Positions 39,081 through 47,082 of a stretch of 64,000 nt of DNA are shown piece by piece. A program made the translations under genes and the position numbers. A model generated the notes under the pieces. It was not told where the DNA came from, did not search any database, and saw only the letters and a program-made list of their open reading frames with translations. Origin of the DNA: Gemmatimonadales bacterium (lineage in GTDB: Bacteria; Gemmatimonadota; Gemmatimonadetes; Gemmatimonadales; GWC2-71-9); assembly GCA_044229445.1 (NCBI GenBank), contig JBGASX010000003.1:20836-84835 (forward strand), read 5' to 3'. Numbering within the stretch: the first letter of the stretch is position 1; every line of letters begins with the position of its first letter.

Positions 39081-40922
39081 TTACATCCCGAAGACGGTGA
39101 GCACGCCACCCTGGGTCGAGAACTGACCCGCGTCGCCGAAGGCGCCGAGGGCGCCCAGGCCGGCGGTCGGATCCTCAGCGCCGATACCAGCGGCGACGCC
39201 GATGCCCGCCCAGCCGCCGATGCCCGAAAGCACCGCGATGTACTGCTTCCCATCCGGGCCCTTGTAGGTCATCGGGTTGCCGATGATGCCCGACGGGGTC
39301 TTGAACTTCCACAGGAGCTTGCCGGTCTTCTGGTCGACGGCCTTGAGCCAGCCTTCCATCGTGCCATAGAACACGAGGCCACCCTGGGTGGTCATCGCGC
39401 CGCCGTACGCGGCCAGGTTCTCCTTGATCTCCCAGACGACCTTGCCGGCCATCGGGTCCCAGGCGAAGAAGCGGCCACGGTGGCCGCCGGGGCCCGGGAA
39501 CATCCGCACGATCGCGCCGACGTACGGCTGACCGCGGGTGTACTTCACTTCGACGCCCTCGTAGTCCATGCAGATGTGGTTCGCGGGGACGTAGAAGAGG
39601 CCGGTGATCGGGGAGTACGCCGCCGGCTGCTGGTCCTTGAAGCCGATCGCCGCCGGGCAGATGCCCTCGGTGTTCTTCTTCGAGGTGGTGCCGTAGCGCG
39701 GATCCTTGACCGGGACGCCGGTGGACACGACGCCCTCGACCGGGGTGCTCGTGCCGCCGTTCTTCGCCCAGTTGATCGGGCCGTACGCGTTGCCAACGAC
39801 GACCTTGCCGTTGGTGCGGTCGACGGTGTAGGCGATGCCGTTACGATCGAAGTGCGCGAGCAGCTTCTGGCCGCCCTTTTCGAACAGCACGCTCTCGTTG
39901 ACGCCGTCGTAGTCCCACTCGTCGTGCGGGGTCATCTGGTACGCCCACTTCGCCATGCCCGTCTCCGGGTTCCGGGCGAACATGGTCATCGACCACTTGT
40001 TGTCGCCGGGGCGCTGGTCGGGGTTCCAGGAACCGGGGTTACCGGTGTTGTAGTAGAAGAGGTTCAGCTCGGGGTCGTAGGAGTACCAGCCCCAGGTCGT
40101 CCCGCCGCCCTTCTTCCACTCATCGCCCTGCCAGGTGGTGACGCCGAGATCCTTGCCCTTGTGGCTCGGATAGTTGGCGTTGGCCGTCTCGGGCACCAGG
40201 GTCTCGCTGTCCGGGCCGGTCGAGTAGGCCGTCCAGATGTGCTTGCCGGTGTTCACGTCGAACGCCGACACGCGGCCGCGCACGCCGAACTCACCGCCGG
40301 AGATACCGGTGATGACGACGTCCTTGATCACGATCGGGGCGACGGTGATGGTCGCGCCGTCCTTGTACATCGTCGCTTCGGTCTGGGTCGGCGACTGGGT
40401 CGGGTGCGACGCCGTCCACAGTTCCTTGCCAGTCTTGGCGTCGAGCGCCACGAGCGTGCCCTGGAGCGCGTTGATGAAGATCTTGCCGCTCGGATGGTAC
40501 GCGGTGCCGCGGTTCACGAGGTCGCAGCAGGCGATCGGGATCGCGTCCGGATTGTTCTTCGGCGTGTACTTCCAGATCTGCGGCGCGCCTTCCTTGGAGA
40601 GGTCGAGCGCGTACACGATGTTCGGGAAGGAGGTGTGCACGTACATCACGTTCCCGATCACGAGGGGGTTGCCCTCATGGCCACGCAGCGTACCGGTCGA
40701 GAAGGTCCAGGCCGCCTTGAGGTTCGCCACGTTCGCGGTGTTGATCTGCGCGAGCGGGCTGTACCGCTGGAGGCTGTAGTCCCGGCCGGGCATCTGCCAG
40801 TCGCCATCCGGAGCGTTACGAGTCCACGCCCCCGAACGCGCCTGGGCATGGGCCGAGACCGCGAGCACGGAAAGGCCCGCGACGAGCCCGCCAGACAACA
40901 TCCTGCGGGTAATACGGTTCAT
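39081..40922 (-). CDS. xoxF: lanthanide-type PQQ-dependent methanol dehydrogenase XoxF
   Basis: ORF 39081..41462 trimmed to ATG 40922 (GAGG 6 nt upstream). Signal peptide MNRITRRMLSGGLVAGLSVLAVSAHAQA and vicinal Cys pair IACCDLVNRG. TPHDEWDYDGVNE carries the extra Asp (DYD) diagnostic of Ln-dependent XoxF, where Ca-MxaF has Ala. 613 aa. Confidence 0.92.
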   Translation of the reverse strand: MNRITRRMLSGGLVAGLSVLAVSAHAQARSGAWTRNAPDGDWQMPGRDYSLQRYSPLAQINTANVANLKAAWTFSTGTLRGHEGNPLVIGNVMYVHTSFPNIVYALDLSKEGAPQIWKYTPKNNPDAIPIACCDLVNRGTAYHPSGKIFINALQGTLVALDAKTGKELWTASHPTQSPTQTEATMYKDGATITVAPIVIKDVVITGISGGEFGVRGRVSAFDVNTGKHIWTAYSTGPDSETLVPETANANYPSHKGKDLGVTTWQGDEWKKGGGTTWGWYSYDPELNLFYYNTGNPGSWNPDQRPGDNKWSMTMFARNPETGMAKWAYQMTPHDEWDYDGVNESVLFEKGGQKLLAHFDRNGIAYTVDRTNGKVVVGNAYGPINWAKNGGTSTPVEGVVSTGVPVKDPRYGTTSKKNTEGICPAAIGFKDQQPAAYSPITGLFYVPANHICMDYEGVEVKYTRGQPYVGAIVRMFPGPGGHRGRFFAWDPMAGKVVWEIKENLAAYGGAMTTQGGLVFYGTMEGWLKAVDQKTGKLLWKFKTPSGIIGNPMTYKGPDGKQYIAVLSGIGGWAGIGVAAGIGAEDPTAGLGALGAFGDAGQFSTQGGVLTVFGM

Positions 40923-41058
40923 AGATGACCTCATGATGAAGGGTTCCAGCAGCCCTCCCGGACTGCTGACTGCGCAGGGCCTGAGCGAGGCGTTCGCGCC
41001 GGCGTGCACGAACGGTCCCCACTCACTCCCCGAGACTTGGTCCTGCACCTGCGTCCTG

Positions 41059-41102
41059 CCACAAAACATCAGCGGCCACCCGGCTGACTTCGCCGGCTGG
41101 CC
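41059..41102 (-). terminator. intrinsic-terminator-like element inside the xoxF leader (attenuator candidate)
   Basis: Minus-strand RNA reads GGCCAGCCGGC-GAAGUCA-GCCGGGUGGCC (10 of 11 bp paired) followed by GCUGAUGUUUUGUGG. It ends ~135 nt upstream of the xoxF ATG. Confidence 0.45.
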
Positions 41103-41478
41103 GCGACCTGCTATCTGCTGCGAGTCCCATGGCCACGCCACCACAGACCGTGGACGGCGGGCCGGCTGGTATTGCCATTCCCGTTGCCGCACACGCCAAC
41201 GCCCACGCTCCCCGGACAGGGGGCGAGGGACGACCGGACTGGAGTGACGGCTACGAGCATAGGGCGAGCTCCCATGACAGCCCACGCATGAGGCACGGAA
41301 CCGAGCCCCGGAAGAAAGACCCGGAACCCTGGTGGAGTCGCAATTTGATTGTGGAAACGGGCTTGTTATCGGTCGAGATGGGGATTCTCGACTGTTGCGG
41401 CCCCACCGATTCAGGTGGTAGTACCGTGCATTCTGTGAAAGGTTCCGGACGGGAACCCCCACATAATGACGGAGGGCC

Positions 41479-41507
41479 AGTATACCGTCCGCCTAATAAT
41501 CTGTCAA
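41479..41507 (-). promoter_or_regulatory. near-consensus sigma-70-type promoter upstream of xoxF
   Basis: Minus strand TTGACA (41507..41502, containing the mptG TGA stop), exactly 17 nt, TATACT (41484..41479). It sits in a locally AT-richer stretch. Confidence 0.5.
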
Positions 41508-42493
41508 TCTCGTCCGATTCGGGCCCAGCTGCTGTGGACCAGTGCGCCCCGTTCCGCGAACGGGGTCTCGAATACCCGGCCCCGGCCTCCCAGATGGGCC
41601 CGGACCCGCTGCGCCAGGTCCAGCCCCGCGTCCTGGTGCGGCACCAGCCCGTAGACGGTCGGTCCCCAGGAACTCTGGCCCACCCCTGCCGCCCCGAAGG
41701 CCGCCATCCGCTCGACCAGCTCTCCGGTCGGCCCGGGGGCGAAGGCGCCTCCCTGGGCCGGCGCGAACCACCCGCCGGTGATGCGCTGGACCTCCGTGAG
41801 CGCGGCGCCGAAGGCGGTCAGGTCGGCGTCGGCGAGTGCGGGCAGCAGCTGCATCAGCACCAGGTGGGCGACCCGTTCCACCTCCCGCTCGTCCGGGGCC
41901 GGCAGGGTCCGGAAGGCACTGACTTCCTCGGCCCCGCTCAGGCCGGGCTGGCTGTCGGGAATCGCGATGACGGCGCGCCACGCGGCGGGAATCGGGAGCC
42001 GCGAGATGAGCGGCGCGACGGCGTCGCTTCCCACCTTCCGGCCCCCCTCGAGCACGAACCCGCCCAGCGCGAAGGTCCAGGTGCCGATCGCCGAGCGCTG
42101 ACCCCGGCCGACCAGCCGCGCCAGCATCTGCGGCTCGGAGGGCTGGCCGTAGAGCTCTGCCAAGGCCCGTGCCACGGCCAGCCCGAGCTGCGTGCCGGAG
42201 CCCAGCCCGGCGTGGCTCGGGATGGCCCGGTGAATCTTCAGGTGGGCCCCGCCCGACAGGCGACTCGCGGTGAGGTATCGCTGGGCGTATTCCTGTGCCC
42301 GGCCCGCGTCGGGCCCCTCGGCGGTCAGCCGGTCGCCAGGGATCGCTTCGAGCAGGGTCGATGGCGTCGGGACCGCCGCGCCGATGCCGCCGAACTTGCG
42401 CCCCAGGTGGCCGCGCAGATCCAGGATGCCGAAATGGAGCCGCGCCGGCGCTTCGACCATGACCCGCTCGGGACGCTCGGCGCTCTGGCTCAT
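41504..42493 (-). CDS. mptG: beta-ribofuranosylaminobenzene 5'-phosphate (beta-RFAP) synthase, GHMP-kinase fold
   Basis: 329 aa. RVMVEAPARLHFGILDL and IPSHAGLGSGTQLGLAVARAL (GHMP motif). It sits among H4MPT genes, next to pabAB, which supply its pABA substrate. Confidence 0.8.
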   Translation of the reverse strand: MSQSAERPERVMVEAPARLHFGILDLRGHLGRKFGGIGAAVPTPSTLLEAIPGDRLTAEGPDAGRAQEYAQRYLTASRLSGGAHLKIHRAIPSHAGLGSGTQLGLAVARALAELYGQPSEPQMLARLVGRGQRSAIGTWTFALGGFVLEGGRKVGSDAVAPLISRLPIPAAWRAVIAIPDSQPGLSGAEEVSAFRTLPAPDEREVERVAHLVLMQLLPALADADLTAFGAALTEVQRITGGWFAPAQGGAFAPGPTGELVERMAAFGAAGVGQSSWGPTVYGLVPHQDAGLDLAQRVRAHLGGRGRVFETPFAERGALVHSSWARIGRD

Positions 42494-43056
42494 GCCGCGG
42501 GGCTTCCCGCCAGCTTGTCGCGGACATAACCGGCAAGCAGTGCCATCGCCTCCCGCTCCCGGGGGCCGGCGGTCTTGTCGACGATGACCTGCAGCCGCGC
42601 GAACTCGGCGCGCACCTCGTCGGCGGGAATGAGATGGGTGCGCGTCGCGACGATCGCCGCTTCAAGCACGGCGTGCCGGGCGCGATTGAAGCCGAGGAAC
42701 TCACGCCGGACGCCGTGGTGCACGACCCGGGTCACGATGCGGGACCGCGGCGGCGTGGCGTCGATCGAGACGACGTCGACCTCGCGCCAGGAGCAGGCGG
42801 CGTCGAGCACCGCGCCCTGGATCACGGCGGCGGGGCCATGCGGAAAGACCACGTTGCCGGTCGCGCCCTGGGCGAAGAGCATGACGTCATCGGTCAGATT
42901 GATCACGGCGGCCCGGGTGGCGGCGAGATTCCGGAAGGTCGTGGTGTCGACGAACGGCTTGATGACGATCGTCTCCTCGCCCCATTCGACGCCCATCGGC
43001 GCGCAGTTGAGCGCGCCAGCGGCATCCATCGAGGTCACGATCGTCTCGATGATCAT
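42490..43056 (-). CDS. DUF447-family protein (H4MPT-biosynthesis associated, split-barrel flavin-binding-like)
   Basis: 188 aa, MIIETIVTSMDAAGALNCAPMGVEW...TTTFRNL. The family call comes from memory of the archaeal/methylotroph DUF447 pattern. 4-nt overlaps on both sides. Confidence 0.6.
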   Translation of the reverse strand: MIIETIVTSMDAAGALNCAPMGVEWGEETIVIKPFVDTTTFRNLAATRAAVINLTDDVMLFAQGATGNVVFPHGPAAVIQGAVLDAACSWREVDVVSIDATPPRSRIVTRVVHHGVRREFLGFNRARHAVLEAAIVATRTHLIPADEVRAEFARLQVIVDKTAGPREREAMALLAGYVRDKLAGSPAA

Positions 43057-44894
43057 GGCGCGACGGTCGTGACGTCCAGGTGCGAGGGATACTGCGCGCT
43101 CCGGTAGACCCGGTGCGTCGCCGCCTGGAAGTCGGAGGCCTTCGCCTCGAAGATGTTGGGGACCCAGCTCTGCGGGTTCCGGTCGTAGACCGGGAACCAG
43201 CTGCTCTGCACCTGCACCATGATCCGGTGGCCCTGCTGGAAGGTGTAGGCCTGCTGGTGCAGGTCCACCGTGAACGGTGTCACCTGATTGGGGACCAGCG
43301 GCTCCGGATGACTCCAGCTCTTCCGGTAGCGTCCGCGCATGATGTCGTTCGCCACCATGAACTCGTAGCCGCCCATGCGCGGCGCGAAGTCGCCGGAATC
43401 GGGATAGACATCGATGAGCTTCACCACCCAGTCGGCATCACGGCCGGTGGTGCTGGCGAAGAGCTTCGCGACGATGTCTCCCGCGATGGTGACATCCTCG
43501 GTCAGGGGAGCCGTCTGCCAGGTGAGCACATCGGGGCGGCCATCGGCGAGCCGCTGGTCCTGGGTGAGCCAGGTGTACCAGTCGGATCCGCGGTGGTGAT
43601 AGGTGAGCTGGATCGGCCGGTTGCGATAGGGGACGGGATGCGCTGGATCGGAGAGGTACTGGTCGAACGCCGCCACCTGGCGGCCCTTCGGGGCCTCGAA
43701 GGACAGTGTGCCATTCGCCCCGAAATAGAGCGAGCGCCGAGTGCCGTTCTTCGGGGGCCAGCTCTCGAAGGCGCGCCAGCGGTTGCTGCCGGCCTCGAAG
43801 AGCAGCGCCTCGGGCAACGGCAGCCGGCCCTTGTCCTTGAGCCAGTAGGCGAACCAGGGCGCCTGCGCCTGCTCGCGGAAGTACGCGCTCGTGGAGTCGT
43901 CGAAGCTGATCTTGCCGAGGCTGTCACCCGCGCCGCGGCTCCAGCCGCCATGGTTCCACGGTCCCATCACCAGATAGTTGATGCCTTTGGTGTCCAGCTT
44001 TTCCAGCGTCTCGTAGGTCTTGAGCGCGCCGTAGAAATCCTCCTGGTCCCACCAGCCGCCGACCGTCATCGTCGGCACGGTGAGGCTGGTCAGATAGGTG
44101 GGCAGCGCACGCGCCTTCCAGAAGGCGTCGTAGGTCGGGTGGGCGGTGAAGTTCTGCCAGGTCGGGACCGACTTCCCCTTGAGCACGCCGCGGCTCACGT
44201 TCGCGAGCGAGCCGAGCTGCAGGTACCAGTCGTAGGTGTCGTAGCGATCGATCGGGACGGGAATGGAGCCGTCGTTGGAGAGCTCCATGTCCGTGGCGTA
44301 CTCGAAGCCGTAGCTGAGCCGGAACGCCCCCTGGTGGAAGAAATCATCGCCCATCCAGGTGTCGGTCATCGGCGCCTGCGGCGAAATGGCACGGACTGCC
44401 GGGTGCGGATTCACGCCGGCCATCGCCGCGAGCCAGCCAGGATAGCTCACGCCCAGCACACCCACTCTGCCGTTGTTGTCGGCGATGTTCTTGACCAGCC
44501 AGTCCACCGTATCCCAGGTGTCGGTGCTCTCGTCCACGCCCTTCGCGTCCTTCGGATCGTGGAGCGGGCGGTTCATCACGAACTGGCCCTCGGAGCCGTA
44601 GCGGCCGCGGATGTCCTGAAAGACGAAGATGTAGCCTTCCGTCACCATCTCCTTGAGATAGACCGCGAAGTAGCGCGCCGGCGACCCGGCGATGCCGTAC
44701 GGCGTGCGCAGCATGATGAACGGCAGCGGCTCGGTGTGGCCCTTCGGCCGGTAGACAAAGGTGTGGAGTCGTGCGCCGTCGCGGGTGGGGAGCATCACCA
44801 TCCGCTCCTCGAAGCCAGTGACGGTGTCCGCCGGCGCCTGGGCCAGCACGGGGAGCGGGAAGGCCGCGAGAACGAGGGCGATGAATTTCCGCAT
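43053..44894 (-). CDS. secreted CocE/NonD-family hydrolase (S15 X-Pro dipeptidyl-peptidase-like)
   Basis: 613 aa. Signal peptide MRKFIALVLAAFPLPVLAQA. RTPYG, nucleophile GVSYPGW and a C-terminal beta-sandwich domain. Its stop overlaps the DUF447 start by 4 nt. Confidence 0.8.
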   Translation of the reverse strand: MRKFIALVLAAFPLPVLAQAPADTVTGFEERMVMLPTRDGARLHTFVYRPKGHTEPLPFIMLRTPYGIAGSPARYFAVYLKEMVTEGYIFVFQDIRGRYGSEGQFVMNRPLHDPKDAKGVDESTDTWDTVDWLVKNIADNNGRVGVLGVSYPGWLAAMAGVNPHPAVRAISPQAPMTDTWMGDDFFHQGAFRLSYGFEYATDMELSNDGSIPVPIDRYDTYDWYLQLGSLANVSRGVLKGKSVPTWQNFTAHPTYDAFWKARALPTYLTSLTVPTMTVGGWWDQEDFYGALKTYETLEKLDTKGINYLVMGPWNHGGWSRGAGDSLGKISFDDSTSAYFREQAQAPWFAYWLKDKGRLPLPEALLFEAGSNRWRAFESWPPKNGTRRSLYFGANGTLSFEAPKGRQVAAFDQYLSDPAHPVPYRNRPIQLTYHHRGSDWYTWLTQDQRLADGRPDVLTWQTAPLTEDVTIAGDIVAKLFASTTGRDADWVVKLIDVYPDSGDFAPRMGGYEFMVANDIMRGRYRKSWSHPEPLVPNQVTPFTVDLHQQAYTFQQGHRIMVQVQSSWFPVYDRNPQSWVPNIFEAKASDFQAATHRVYRSAQYPSHLDVTTVAP

Positions 44895-44971: not shown

Positions 44972-45640
44972 TCAGCGGACCAGGTCCGCCGGCGGTGGCC
45001 GGTCGGCGAGACCCGGTTCCTCGCCGCTCGGCGGAGCGGGGGCACCGTCCGCCCGGTCCGGGACGTTTCTTCCCCGGCCGCCGGTGAGGAACCAGTCGAG
45101 CATCCGGTAGCCGTACTCGGTGAGCACCGACTCGGGATGGAACTGGACTCCCACGACGGGATGCTCCCGGTGCGCCACGGCCATGATCTCGCCATCCTCG
45201 GACGTGGCCGTCACCCGCAGCGCGTCGGGCACCGATTCGGGTGCGATGACCAGCGAATGATAGCGGGTCGCCGTCAGCGGACTCGGGAGCCCGGTGAAGA
45301 CCGAGGTGCCATCGTGGTGGATGCGCGACGTCTTGCCGTGCATCGGGCGCCCGGCACGGACGATCTCCGCCCCGTACGCGGCGCCGATTGCCTGGTGTCC
45401 CAGACAGACGCCGAAGACCGGGATCGTCGGTCCGTAGCGGTGGATCACGTCGATCGACACGCCGGCCTCGGCCGGGGTGCAGGGACCCGGGGAGATGATG
45501 ATGTGCGTGGGGGCGAGCCGGGCGATGTCGTCGAGCGTCACCGCGTCGTTCCGGCGTACCACTGGTGCCTCGCCCAGTTCCGCGACGTAGCGGGCCAGGT
45601 TGTAGACGAAGCTGTCGTAGTTGTCGATGAGCAGGATCAT
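44972..45640 (-). CDS. pabA: aminodeoxychorismate/anthranilate synthase glutamine amidotransferase component
   Basis: 222 aa. MILLIDNYDSFVYNL, FGVCLGHQAIG (Cys nucleophile) and GVQFHPES. 4-nt overlap with the pabB stop. Confidence 0.85.
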   Translation of the reverse strand: MILLIDNYDSFVYNLARYVAELGEAPVVRRNDAVTLDDIARLAPTHIIISPGPCTPAEAGVSIDVIHRYGPTIPVFGVCLGHQAIGAAYGAEIVRAGRPMHGKTSRIHHDGTSVFTGLPSPLTATRYHSLVIAPESVPDALRVTATSEDGEIMAVAHREHPVVGVQFHPESVLTEYGYRMLDWFLTGGRGRNVPDRADGAPAPPSGEEPGLADRPPPADLVR

Positions 45641-47082
45641 GGCGTCGTCACCGCGCCCGCGAGCGCCGTGATGAGGGCGCGCGCCTTGTGCAGCGTCTCC
45701 TGGTACTCGCTCTCCGGATCCGAGTCGGCGACGATCCCGCCGCCCGCGGAGAAGGTCACCCGTCCCCCCGCCGCGACCAGGGTGCGGATCACGATACTCG
45801 TGTCCATCGCCCCCGTGACGCTCAGGTAGCCGATCGACCCGCAGTAGATCCCGCGCCGCGACGGCTCCAGTTCGGCGATGATCTCCATCGCGCGCACCTT
45901 CGGCGCGCCGGTGATCGAACCGCCGGGGAAGGCCGCCGCGAGAAGATCCGTCGTGTCGCGGCCCGGTGCCAGATCGCCGACCACGGTCGACACCAGGTGG
46001 TGGACGGTGCGGTACCGCTCCAGCGCGAACAACTCGGGCACCCGCACCGAGCCGGGCCGGCAGACGCGGCTCAGGTCGTTCCGCAGCAGGTCCACGATCA
46101 TCAGGTTCTCGGCCCGGTCCTTCTCGCTGTCGCGGAGTGCGCGGGACAGCGCGGCGTCGTGCTGCGGGGACAGTCCGCGTGGCGTCGTGCCCTTGATGGG
46201 CCGAGTTTCCACATGGCCGGCGGTGTCGACGCGCAGAAACCGCTCCGGCGACGCGCTGGCGACGGTGACGCCGTCGAACTCGAGATAGGCGGCGAAGGGC
46301 GCGGGGTTGACCTCGCGGAGCCGCCGGTAGAGATGCCAGGGATCTTCCTCGAGCGGCACCTCGAAGCGCTGGGAGAGATTCGCCTGGAAGATGTCACCGG
46401 CGACGATGTACTCCCGCACGCGGGTCACCGCGTCGAGGTAGCCACGGTGGGTGAAGGACGACCTGAGACCGATGCCGATGGCGTGCTCGGTGCCCGCGAC
46501 CGGATAGGACGGGGCATGCGGGGCCGAGGCATGCTTCGGGTCCGCCTGTCGTGGCCTCCCGGGCGCCCCGCCCGTCGGCCCCTTCAGCATCCGCTGCACC
46601 CACTGCATCCGTTCGGTGGCGCGCTCCACCTTGGCGCCGCCGGTCGCCGGCAGGCCGGTGGAGATCAGCCACGCGCGACTCTCGGCGTGATCCCACGCGA
46701 TCACCCAGTCATACAGGCCCAGGACCGCGTCGGGGAGATTGAGGTCGTCGTAGCGCGGCGCTGGCAGCCGCTCCAGCACGGCCCCGTAGTCGTAGGCCAG
46801 GTACCCGGCGATGCCGCCCTGAAAGGGAGGCAGCCCCAGCATGGCGGGGCCTGCGTGGGGCGCGAGCAGCGCCCGGGCGCGGTCAAGTGCCGTCGCTCCG
46901 CCCGACCCCTTGCTGCGGACCACTTCGACGGGAGCGGCGGACAGGAACGAGTAGCGTCCCAGCCGTTCCGGATCGGCCGCGCTGTCCAGGAAGAGCAGGT
47001 GGGGCTGTCCGAGGAATCGCTCCGCCGTGAACACCGGGTCCGGCGCGGGGGAGAGTTCCTCGACGAGCGGCAGGTCAGGCAT
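45637..47082 (-). CDS. pabB: aminodeoxychorismate synthase component I
   Basis: 481 aa chorismate-binding enzyme. It has PIKGT, with Lys as in PabB (TrpE has PIAGT), plus GAPKVRAMEII and GGGIVADS. Confidence 0.8.
   Translation of the reverse strand: MPDLPLVEELSPAPDPVFTAERFLGQPHLLFLDSAADPERLGRYSFLSAAPVEVVRSKGSGGATALDRARALLAPHAGPAMLGLPPFQGGIAGYLAYDYGAVLERLPAPRYDDLNLPDAVLGLYDWVIAWDHAESRAWLISTGLPATGGAKVERATERMQWVQRMLKGPTGGAPGRPRQADPKHASAPHAPSYPVAGTEHAIGIGLRSSFTHRGYLDAVTRVREYIVAGDIFQANLSQRFEVPLEEDPWHLYRRLREVNPAPFAAYLEFDGVTVASASPERFLRVDTAGHVETRPIKGTTPRGLSPQHDAALSRALRDSEKDRAENLMIVDLLRNDLSRVCRPGSVRVPELFALERYRTVHHLVSTVVGDLAPGRDTTDLLAAAFPGGSITGAPKVRAMEIIAELEPSRRGIYCGSIGYLSVTGAMDTSIVIRTLVAAGGRVTFSAGGGIVADSDPESEYQETLHKARALITALAGAVTTP

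Follow-up and report, generated by a model that had tools for sequence, protein, structure and literature searches.

What does the long spacer in front of xoxF do? In a 64-kb stretch of DNA from a Gemmatimonadales bacterium of activated sludge (contig JBGASX010000003.1, 68% GC; the whole stretch is referred to here as the window), 581 nt separate a gene of the mptG family from xoxF, which encodes a lanthanide-type pyrroloquinoline quinone (PQQ) methanol/ethanol dehydrogenase. All features described below lie on the minus strand of the window. To our knowledge, xoxF regulation has been described only via two-component systems, TonB-linked uptake and XoxF itself, and our full-text literature search found no paper linking xoxF with a leader peptide, an upstream ORF (uORF; ORF, open reading frame), a riboswitch or attenuation. 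An original prediction, made from the letters of the window, had proposed a near-consensus promoter and a ~550-nt non-coding leader with an internal terminator-like hairpin, and had offered two readings: an independent non-coding RNA, or control of xoxF by attenuation or antitermination. Here we describe a folded RNA domain, a tryptophan (Trp)-rich ORF and a terminator hairpin in this spacer, which together suggest an undescribed way of switching xoxF. In the reading that we favor, to which we assign about an even chance of being right, this spacer is a leader through which the xoxF operon is regulated, by transcription attenuation coupled to translation.

The leader ORF and the hairpin at its end

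Our comparison set consisted of 80 xoxF loci from Gemmatimonadales genomes, in almost all of which mptG lies immediately upstream of xoxF. The spacer between the two genes measures 450-780 nt in ~65 loci and only ~150-210 nt in a more distant group. The window belongs to the clade that we call A, and we refer to a sister clade with long leaders as clade B.

Within the window spacer lies an ORF of 54 codons (41275..41111), with its ATG at 41275..41273 and its stop codon, TAG, at 41113..41111. The encoded peptide, MGARPMLVAV...HGLWWRGHGTRSR, carries tandem Trp codons (W45 and W46, 41143..41138) about 9 codons ahead of the stop, and the TAG itself is located 3 bases before the extended stem of the terminator-like hairpin (3-7 nt before the hairpin). 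In clade A, a Shine-Dalgarno (SD)-like GAGG, followed after 6 nt by ATG or GTG and lying 71-88 nt past the 5' RNA domain described below, opens an ORF of 42-62 codons. We examined this frame in 39 distinct clade-A sequences, which form 29 clusters at 85% identity. In all 39 it runs without a stop at least as far as 11 nt from the hairpin, and in 31 of the 39 the first stop ends 1-11 nt (mode, 7) short of the stem's conserved CGGCC, compared to 1 and 0 of 39 for the other two frames. Trp codons are likewise concentrated in this frame: clade A holds 129 TGG codons in frame versus 45 and 80 out of frame, and TGGTGG occurs 26 times in frame versus 2 and 1 in clade A and 15 times versus 1 and 2 in clade B. 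In the clade-A peptides Trp accounts for 6.1% of residues, and the last Trp lies 8-10 residues from the stop in 21 of 40.

The rest of the peptide behaves differently. Substitutions are flat across the three codon positions (5196/4985/5124) and 42% of pairwise aligned blocks are out of frame between relatives, so that most of the peptide is unconstrained. Judged from these alignments, selection is on the existence and the end point of the uORF, not on most of its peptide sequence. We therefore rejected the uORF as a conserved protein, for which we also found no Pfam family match; only its extent, its Trp codons and short motifs are constrained. Neither a signal peptide nor a membrane segment is shown by the xoxF uORF peptides. 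The description of the leader as non-coding holds for the upstream in-frame extension of xoxF, which is not coding, but it does not hold for the frame that contains the conserved 54-codon ORF. What had been overlooked is the central element of the locus, a conserved uORF whose stop abuts the hairpin.

The hairpin that follows (41059..41107) is of the intrinsic-terminator type, with a core stem at 41104..41072, an extended stem at 41107..41068, and then G and UUUU (41066..41063), placing the U4 tract ~141 nt ahead of the xoxF ATG. It folds at -30 kcal/mol in the centroid structure (z = -3.3) and is the strongest combination of a hairpin and a U-run in the 64 kb, at -29.9 kcal/mol versus -22.5 kcal/mol for the next best, although a simple terminator scan missed it because of an internal mismatch. 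The entire leader also folds better than its own shuffles (z = -4.9). All 13 stem pairs are kept in 35 clade-A sequences, 5 of them with compensatory changes (for example, CGGCC/GGCCG to CGGUC/GACCG), and a YUGRUG spacer followed by a tract of U3-6 is present in most of these 35 relatives, with two tails clearly degenerate. The hairpin that had originally been noticed here is thus real, conserved and covarying, with the core stem and U-tract at the corrected coordinates given above.

The distance from hairpin to xoxF ATG is nearly constant, at 177-202 nt. In one lineage (L004 3460..4007 and L097 2420..2498), ~110 nt between the U-tract and the ribosome-binding site (RBS) block have been lost, leaving the hairpin 28 nt from the ATG; there, xoxF must be transcribed through the hairpin, since a downstream promoter of its own is hardly possible. 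We sought a sigma-70 promoter between hairpin and xoxF and found none. Sigma-54-like TGGCA..TGCA elements were rejected by eye, as their GG-GC spacing is wrong or variable between species.

Leaders of the sister clades end their ORFs in another way. Those of clade B have a homologous ORF of 33-157 codons, with the N-terminus MGLFPFASTVGTM and a Trp-rich middle. In 28 of 30 distinct clade-B leaders, the conserved ATG shares its frame with the motif GARCGNRGNCMNCC, 99-333 nt away, and in 27 that frame is open through the motif; the motif encodes E-R-G-P-P, with codons varying synonymously, and a stop follows within a few codons. Counting all related leaders of other clades, short leaders included, R[GAS]PP is found near the end of the sense ORF in 44 of 70, 0-15 residues from the C-terminus, and the short-leader group has uORFs of 18-33 codons with RGPP, RSPP or RAPP (RAPP in one leader). 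No R-x-P-P motif is present in the window uORF or in clade A. RGPP and RAPP are experimentally established ribosome-arrest motifs that are refractory to elongation factor P (EF-P) and depleted from proteomes, and they are enriched close to the C-terminal ends of small ORFs that lie upstream of a variety of genes, metal-homeostasis genes included (PMC12992588). In the xoxF leaders, RGPP is encoded on the 5' arm (CGCGGNCC) of a long, conserved hairpin, an arm whose sequence counterpart in clade A is the 5' arm of the terminator. With RGPP on the homologous arm in clade B and the short-leader clade, and the stop codon at its foot in the clade of the window, the ribosome should come to rest at the same helix arm in every clade, by arrest in the former two and by stop-codon termination in the latter. 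A ribosome parked on a homologous hairpin arm would then be the principle common to all clades. The uORF of the short-leader group begins a few bases past the predicted transcript start, and this is probably the ancestral form of the leader.

Promoter, transcripts and further leader structure

A sigma-70-type promoter, TTGACA-N17-TATACT, lies at 41507..41479 (-35 at 41507..41502, -10 at 41484..41479), with a score of 11/12. It is the sole promoter-like site of at least 10/12 on both strands of the whole 64 kb, and block shuffles of the window yield a mean of 0.42 sites at this threshold and of 0.02 at 11/12 or better. The mptG stop codon, TGA at 41506..41504, falls within the -35 hexamer. Because the motif GATTGACAG-N15-GTATACT is kept in ~70 Gemmatimonadales loci, which is essentially all of them, short spacers included, it is the ancestral promoter of the xoxF locus; in some loci it lies up to 100 nt past the mptG stop. 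Transcription would start at ~41472, giving a leader of ~550 nt. Five short-leader loci (L067, L068, L074, L075 and L080) share this promoter and have a leader of only 110-230 nt.

Transcripts of the region were traced in Logan contigs, assembled and unstranded, from sludge and wastewater metatranscriptomes, 20 runs of which could be placed on it. Expression of xoxF is visible in sludge metatranscriptomes. Leader contigs reach 41461, 41451, 41445 (in three runs of one sample) and 41431, which fits a start near 41472, and mptG and everything above 41461 have zero contig coverage in these 20 runs, each of which has contigs on the neighboring leader or on xoxF. The originally predicted promoter, which in the window overlaps the mptG stop as had been noted, is accordingly real and conserved, RNA contigs begin just below it, and the long leader is transcribed.

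Some of these contigs contain the leader only and end at or before the hairpin (X28, 41054..41445; X43, 41076..41382), and others run from the leader to xoxF (X31, 40977..41445; X35, 40907..41384; X37, 40888..41244). A further contig, X46 (41029..41179), spans the hairpin and its U-tract. Leader contigs other than X28, with its end at 41054, stop at varying positions. Given the contigs that span it, the hairpin is at most a partial stop. Each of the two originally offered readings finds partial backing here, the non-coding RNA in leader-only contigs near the hairpin (X28) and attenuation in the contigs that run through it (X31, X35, X37 and X46).

At its 5' end, the leader holds a structured RNA domain of 117 nt (model R1, 41473..41357), supported by covariation in 37 distinct clade-A sequences and absent from the earlier account of the locus. 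The domain consists of a long hairpin, P1 (~41470..41427), that holds an invariant GGAAC (41446..41442); a second helix, P2 (CGGUACUACC/GGUGGGGCCG, 41426..41398), that is 97% paired and is followed by the invariant linker CAACA; a third hairpin, P3 (41392..41372), also 97% paired; and, 3' of P3, the invariant tail CGAUAACAAGCCCG (41371..41358). In this three-helix structure 83.7% of cells are paired across the 37 sequences, compared to 38-56% when the partners are slid. Changes on both sides were seen at 18 pairs, and the covariation score is 0.262 versus 0.156 in shuffles, with 0 of 500 shuffles reaching the observed value. P1 was not recovered by RNAalifold on MAFFT alignments, and its support consists of per-sequence folds and of counts on a hand-given structure. 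It folds as a long hairpin in every sequence, although subgroups differ in register, with the result that only 60-78% of lower-stem cells are paired.

The domain is specific to this position. A pattern drawn from the conserved block, GGCCGNAACAG-N15-35-GATAACAAGCCC, has 32 matches in reference genomes and 18 in metagenome contigs, all between mptG and xoxF save one chance match within an unrelated gene. The R1 covariance model matches clade-A leaders only (13 of the 80 xoxF loci), with a single match in the window, at 41473..41357; it finds nothing in clade B, whose conserved 5' end differs from that of clade A, nor elsewhere in the window. Rfam 15 gave no match in the whole window at the gathering score, nor in 40800..41600 at E<=10. 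As a riboswitch candidate, R1 therefore presents a covariation-supported fold and falls in no described class or family. For the invariant tail GAUAACAAGCCC, pairing with the uORF start was considered and rejected, as the duplex energies are no better than elsewhere in the leader (median rank fraction, 0.4). GGAAC and CGGTAC (41446..41421) are invariant and exactly 15 nt apart in 37 of 37 clade-A leaders, despite indels in the opposite strand of P1; GGAAC-N15-CGGTAC resembles the -35/-10 elements of extracytoplasmic function (ECF) sigma factors and may represent an additional promoter, situated ~45 nt below the sigma-70 start.

The leader also has structure past the terminator-like hairpin. 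RNAalifold on 30 sequences found a distal hairpin, GUUCGUG-CACGCCGG-CGCGAAC (41013..40992), with compensatory changes at 6 pairs (CG to UA/AU in 8) and a near-invariant loop, ACGCCGG. The proximal leader (40923..40968) begins with the hairpin CAGCAG..CUGCUG (40968..40947) and continues with the block ACCCUUCAUCAUGAGGUCAUCU, which contains the xoxF SD, GAGG (40932..40929). The block CCCUUCAUCAUGAGG (40943..40929) is invariant or nearly so in all clades, and a 4-bp CCUU/GAGG stem within it, a candidate drawn from an unvarying sequence, could hide the SD. In clade B, the last ~60 nt before xoxF (L024, L033 and L076) are nearly invariant, reading GTGGCAMC-GAAATGCAGTAGAGCAGTAGAAC-CACCCUUCAUCCUGAGG with a tandem GCAGTAGA repeat, and look sigma-54-like (TGGCAC..TGCA), yet the GG-GC spacing is one base short.

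How the leader may act, and rival explanations

In the attenuation model, a ribosome that follows close behind RNA polymerase and stands at the uORF stop would, from its known footprint, cover the first 7-10 nt of the 5' arm, such that the terminator could not form and polymerase would proceed into xoxF. If the uORF were left untranslated, the hairpin would form and transcription would end near 41060, and the same outcome would be expected if the ribosome lagged, for example at the two Trp codons ~33 nt upstream of the stem. Read-through would thereby depend on translational capacity or on charged tRNA-Trp. Such dependence on charged tRNA-Trp would invert the logic of the trp operon, and it would make sense for an abundant enzyme in which 3.26% of residues are Trp. 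Alternatively, the Trp residues may exert their effect inside the ribosomal exit tunnel, in the manner of TnaC. A second input may come from the 5' domain, which probably sets the frequency of leader-ORF translation or the stability of the RNA. Since the uORF stop abuts the hairpin, ribosome-mediated attenuation is likelier than control by a protein antiterminator or by a ligand riboswitch that targets the terminator directly. What endures of the attenuation or antitermination originally proposed is the regulatory leader, and its riboswitch-like or protein-mediated form has become the less likely one.

Several observations weigh against this model. The UUUU tract lies 5-6 nt past the conserved core stem, though 1 nt past the extended stem, and a by-eye, non-exhaustive inspection of the alignment and of individual sequences revealed no conserved antiterminator pairing with the 5' arm. 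The SD of the window uORF is weak (GUGGG), and the close relative L102 has none. The clade-B hairpin is not followed by a U-tract, so the mechanism in that clade may be translational or Rho-dependent. Nor, apart from the Trp content of XoxF, is there an obvious reason to connect Trp sensing with methanol oxidation. The transcript evidence comprises assembled, unstranded contigs rather than mapped 3' ends or ribosome positions, and in six runs the xoxF contigs end at 41014, 41020, 41020, 41026, 41034 and 41066 with the leader uncovered, which makes a second xoxF 5' end downstream of the hairpin possible, arising by processing or from another promoter. Transcription of xoxF with a silent upstream region, which the original prediction had named as evidence against itself, is therefore seen in part, these six runs having xoxF covered and no coverage above ~41066. 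One sample has a leader depth of ~11-14x versus ~60-115x for xoxF; simple attenuation should leave at least as much leader as xoxF, barring instability of the leader fragment or a collapse of strains in the coding region. The contig data favor an extra 5' end downstream of the hairpin, and it is for this reason that we put attenuation at about an even chance. An antiterminator of the trp type, in which the 3' arm has a copy upstream, was sought by eye and is not conserved. Contig depth was rejected as a gauge of leader relative to xoxF, as strain mixtures and contig-wide averaging confound it too strongly to decide among attenuation, processing and a second start.

The same contigs bear on two other explanations. 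The locus may comprise two units: an independent transcript of ~410 nt, serving as a small-protein mRNA or dual-function RNA and stopping at a terminator of its own, and xoxF, transcribed mainly from a second start immediately past the hairpin, read-through being incidental. The leader-only contigs, such as X28 and X43, would be this transcript, the six xoxF contig ends at 41014-41066 without leader depth would mark the second start, leader depth is often well under xoxF depth, and the ORF directly before the terminator resembles an ordinary small gene. We nevertheless regard two units as unlikely, given the existence of read-through contigs, the lack of any promoter-like sequence between hairpin and xoxF (with sigma-54-like spacing inconsistent between species), and the L004 lineage, in which just 28 nt separate the hairpin from the ATG. 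Moreover, a peptide that is mostly unconstrained and often frameshifted between relatives is atypical of a functional small protein, the element was found solely in front of xoxF, and the short-leader clade shares the promoter and has an RGPP uORF directly before xoxF. Processing would account for the six clustered contig ends just past the hairpin, where a promoter is absent, by a single long primary transcript in which the hairpin and its U-rich tail form an RNase cleavage or stabilizer site, from which the xoxF mRNA emerges stable and the leader fragment unstable; uORF translation, the distal hairpins and the CCUU/GAGG stem would then control processing or xoxF translation, not termination. 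The single-stranded GAUGUUUUG adjoins a stable stem, in the manner of RNase E-type sites, leader:xoxF depth ratios span ~0 to ~1 across samples, the hairpin-to-ATG distance is constant next to an invariant RBS block able to hide the SD, and the clade-B hairpins have no U-tract. The arrest peptides SecM and MifM, furthermore, act by opening an RBS-hiding structure (PMC12992588). A conserved U-tract just past a strong GC stem is, however, the classic signature of a terminator, and this one is the best in 64 kb; we found no conserved pairing of its arms with the RBS block, and contig ends are rough proxies for RNA ends. On balance, processing strikes us as distinctly unlikely.

A riboswitch in the strict sense would make the 117-nt domain an aptamer, for a metal ion or small molecule such as a lanthanide, PQQ or a one-carbon (C1) metabolite, that acts directly on the terminator by alternative pairing, the ORF being incidental. 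The domain is indeed conserved and covarying, with invariant single-stranded segments, and occurs exclusively upstream of xoxF. We find this explanation highly improbable all the same: ~250 nt, with a selected ORF between them, separate the end of the domain from the hairpin, and pairing of the domain with the terminator or the uORF start is unsupported. The domain is moreover confined to one clade (13 of 80 xoxF loci), the uORF and the hairpin arm being common to all clades; it matches no Rfam family, and the invariance of GGAAC-N15-CGGTAC could partly be a DNA-level signal. A bolder reading would have the leader serve as a ribosome-based sensor of a signal relevant to lanthanide-dependent methanol oxidation, acting through the Trp-rich nascent peptide in the clade of the window and through the RGPP/RAPP arrest peptide in sister clades, with the 5' domain a new riboswitch class that gates the uORF. 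What is sensed could be a small molecule or a metal, or else how far export or assembly of the enzyme has proceeded. We entertain this sensor as a speculative and rather unlikely proposal.

Known systems and the wider locus

Like trpL, hisL, pheL and the ilvB-II uORF motif of Corynebacterium, the xoxF leader carries a short ORF with an in-frame start and stop throughout. Further likenesses to amino-acid attenuators are the tandem codons for a single amino acid (Trp in the xoxF leader; E. coli TrpL has GWWRTS at its end), the GC hairpin and U-tract downstream, and a peptide that otherwise drifts. In-frame start and stop codons in all members and enrichment of particular codons have served to define uORF attenuators, as for ilvB-II of Corynebacterium (PMC10272879), and the xoxF leader displays both the start and stop and the enrichment, the latter in Trp codons. 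The differences are that the xoxF leader controls a methanol dehydrogenase rather than Trp biosynthesis, that its ORF is longer (~54 codons) and is preceded by a 117-nt structured domain, that no 2:3 antiterminator was found in it, and that its geometry predicts the opposite logic, with Trp stalling favoring termination. As the downstream genes (xoxF, moxJ-like and cytochrome c) neither make nor charge Trp, the leader is not a trp-type attenuator and would only work like one.

The E. coli pyrBI attenuator senses the coupling of RNA polymerase with the leading ribosome. There too, the leader ORF reaches the terminator, a close ribosome blocks the hairpin, and no antiterminator helix is needed, but the signal is UTP (uridine triphosphate)-dependent polymerase pausing at U-runs, and the pyrBI stop lies beyond the hairpin, whereas that of the xoxF uORF lies just before it. 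In tnaC-tnaA and mgtA/mgtCBR (mgtL, mgtP), the position of the ribosome on a leader ORF decides transcription by way of Rho-dependent termination; the critical Trp of TnaC is ~12 residues before the stop, and in the mgtA leader a uORF is joined with an RNA structure that responds to ions. These systems share with the xoxF leader a long leader with a short ORF. They differ from it in that the xoxF leader has an intrinsic-type hairpin, and there is no sequence similarity.

Arrest peptides of the RAPP/RGPP type include ApdA, ApcA, ApdP, CruR and examples from Streptomyces (PMC12992588, PMC10951233, PMC7897499). The sister-clade uORFs resemble them in carrying RGPP, RAPP or RSPP near the C-terminus and in lying upstream of a metal-dependent periplasmic enzyme, in contrast to the window uORF, which has no R-x-P-P and ends before the arm that encodes RGPP in the other clades. 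The main text of PMC12992588 makes no mention of xoxF, PQQ or Gemmatimonadota.

If the speculative sensor reading is true, control of xoxF at the level of RNA and ribosome would be a layer so far missing from descriptions of the "lanthanide switch." The leader would add a non-biosynthetic and apparently inverse-logic case to Trp-codon attenuation, and it would extend RGPP/RAPP arrest uORFs to a lanthanide enzyme. Gemmatimonadota are abundant expressers of xoxF in soils and sludge (PMC10875860, PMC5103831), and the conserved leader offers a concrete, testable handle on how uncultured methanol oxidizers switch xoxF.

The xoxF gene of the window (39081..40922) encodes 613 amino acids and was identified by Pfam PQQ and NCBIfam TIGR03075 matches (653 bits). 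Its product has a signal peptide and a DYD motif at residue 337, contains the 3.26% Trp noted above, and is 99.5% identical to the XoxF of the closest genome record, MAG_AAO_H10.65. The start codon is the ATG at 40922, which follows the GAGG at 40932..40929 after a 6-nt spacer, and homologues in relatives align from residue 1. Along the minus strand, the gene order is pabB/pabA-like, S15 peptidase, a DUF447 gene, the mptG family gene, the 581-nt spacer, xoxF, moxJ-like, cytochrome c genes and others. The mptG-family ORF (42493..41504) matches NCBIfam TIGR00144 above the cut-off.

Two of the upstream neighbors deserve mention. The aminodeoxychorismate synthase-like genes upstream of mptG (pabA/pabB-like, 44972..47082) fit a supply of p-aminobenzoate (pABA) for tetrahydromethanopterin synthesis. 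The S15-family X-Pro dipeptidyl peptidase encoded between the pab genes and mptG (43053..44894) is, at 3.6%, also unusually rich in Trp. Among the relatives, the metagenome-assembled genome (MAG) MFD09964.bin.2.64 holds two differing copies of the mptG-leader segment (L097 and L111), which points to either a duplicated xoxF locus or contamination of the bin.

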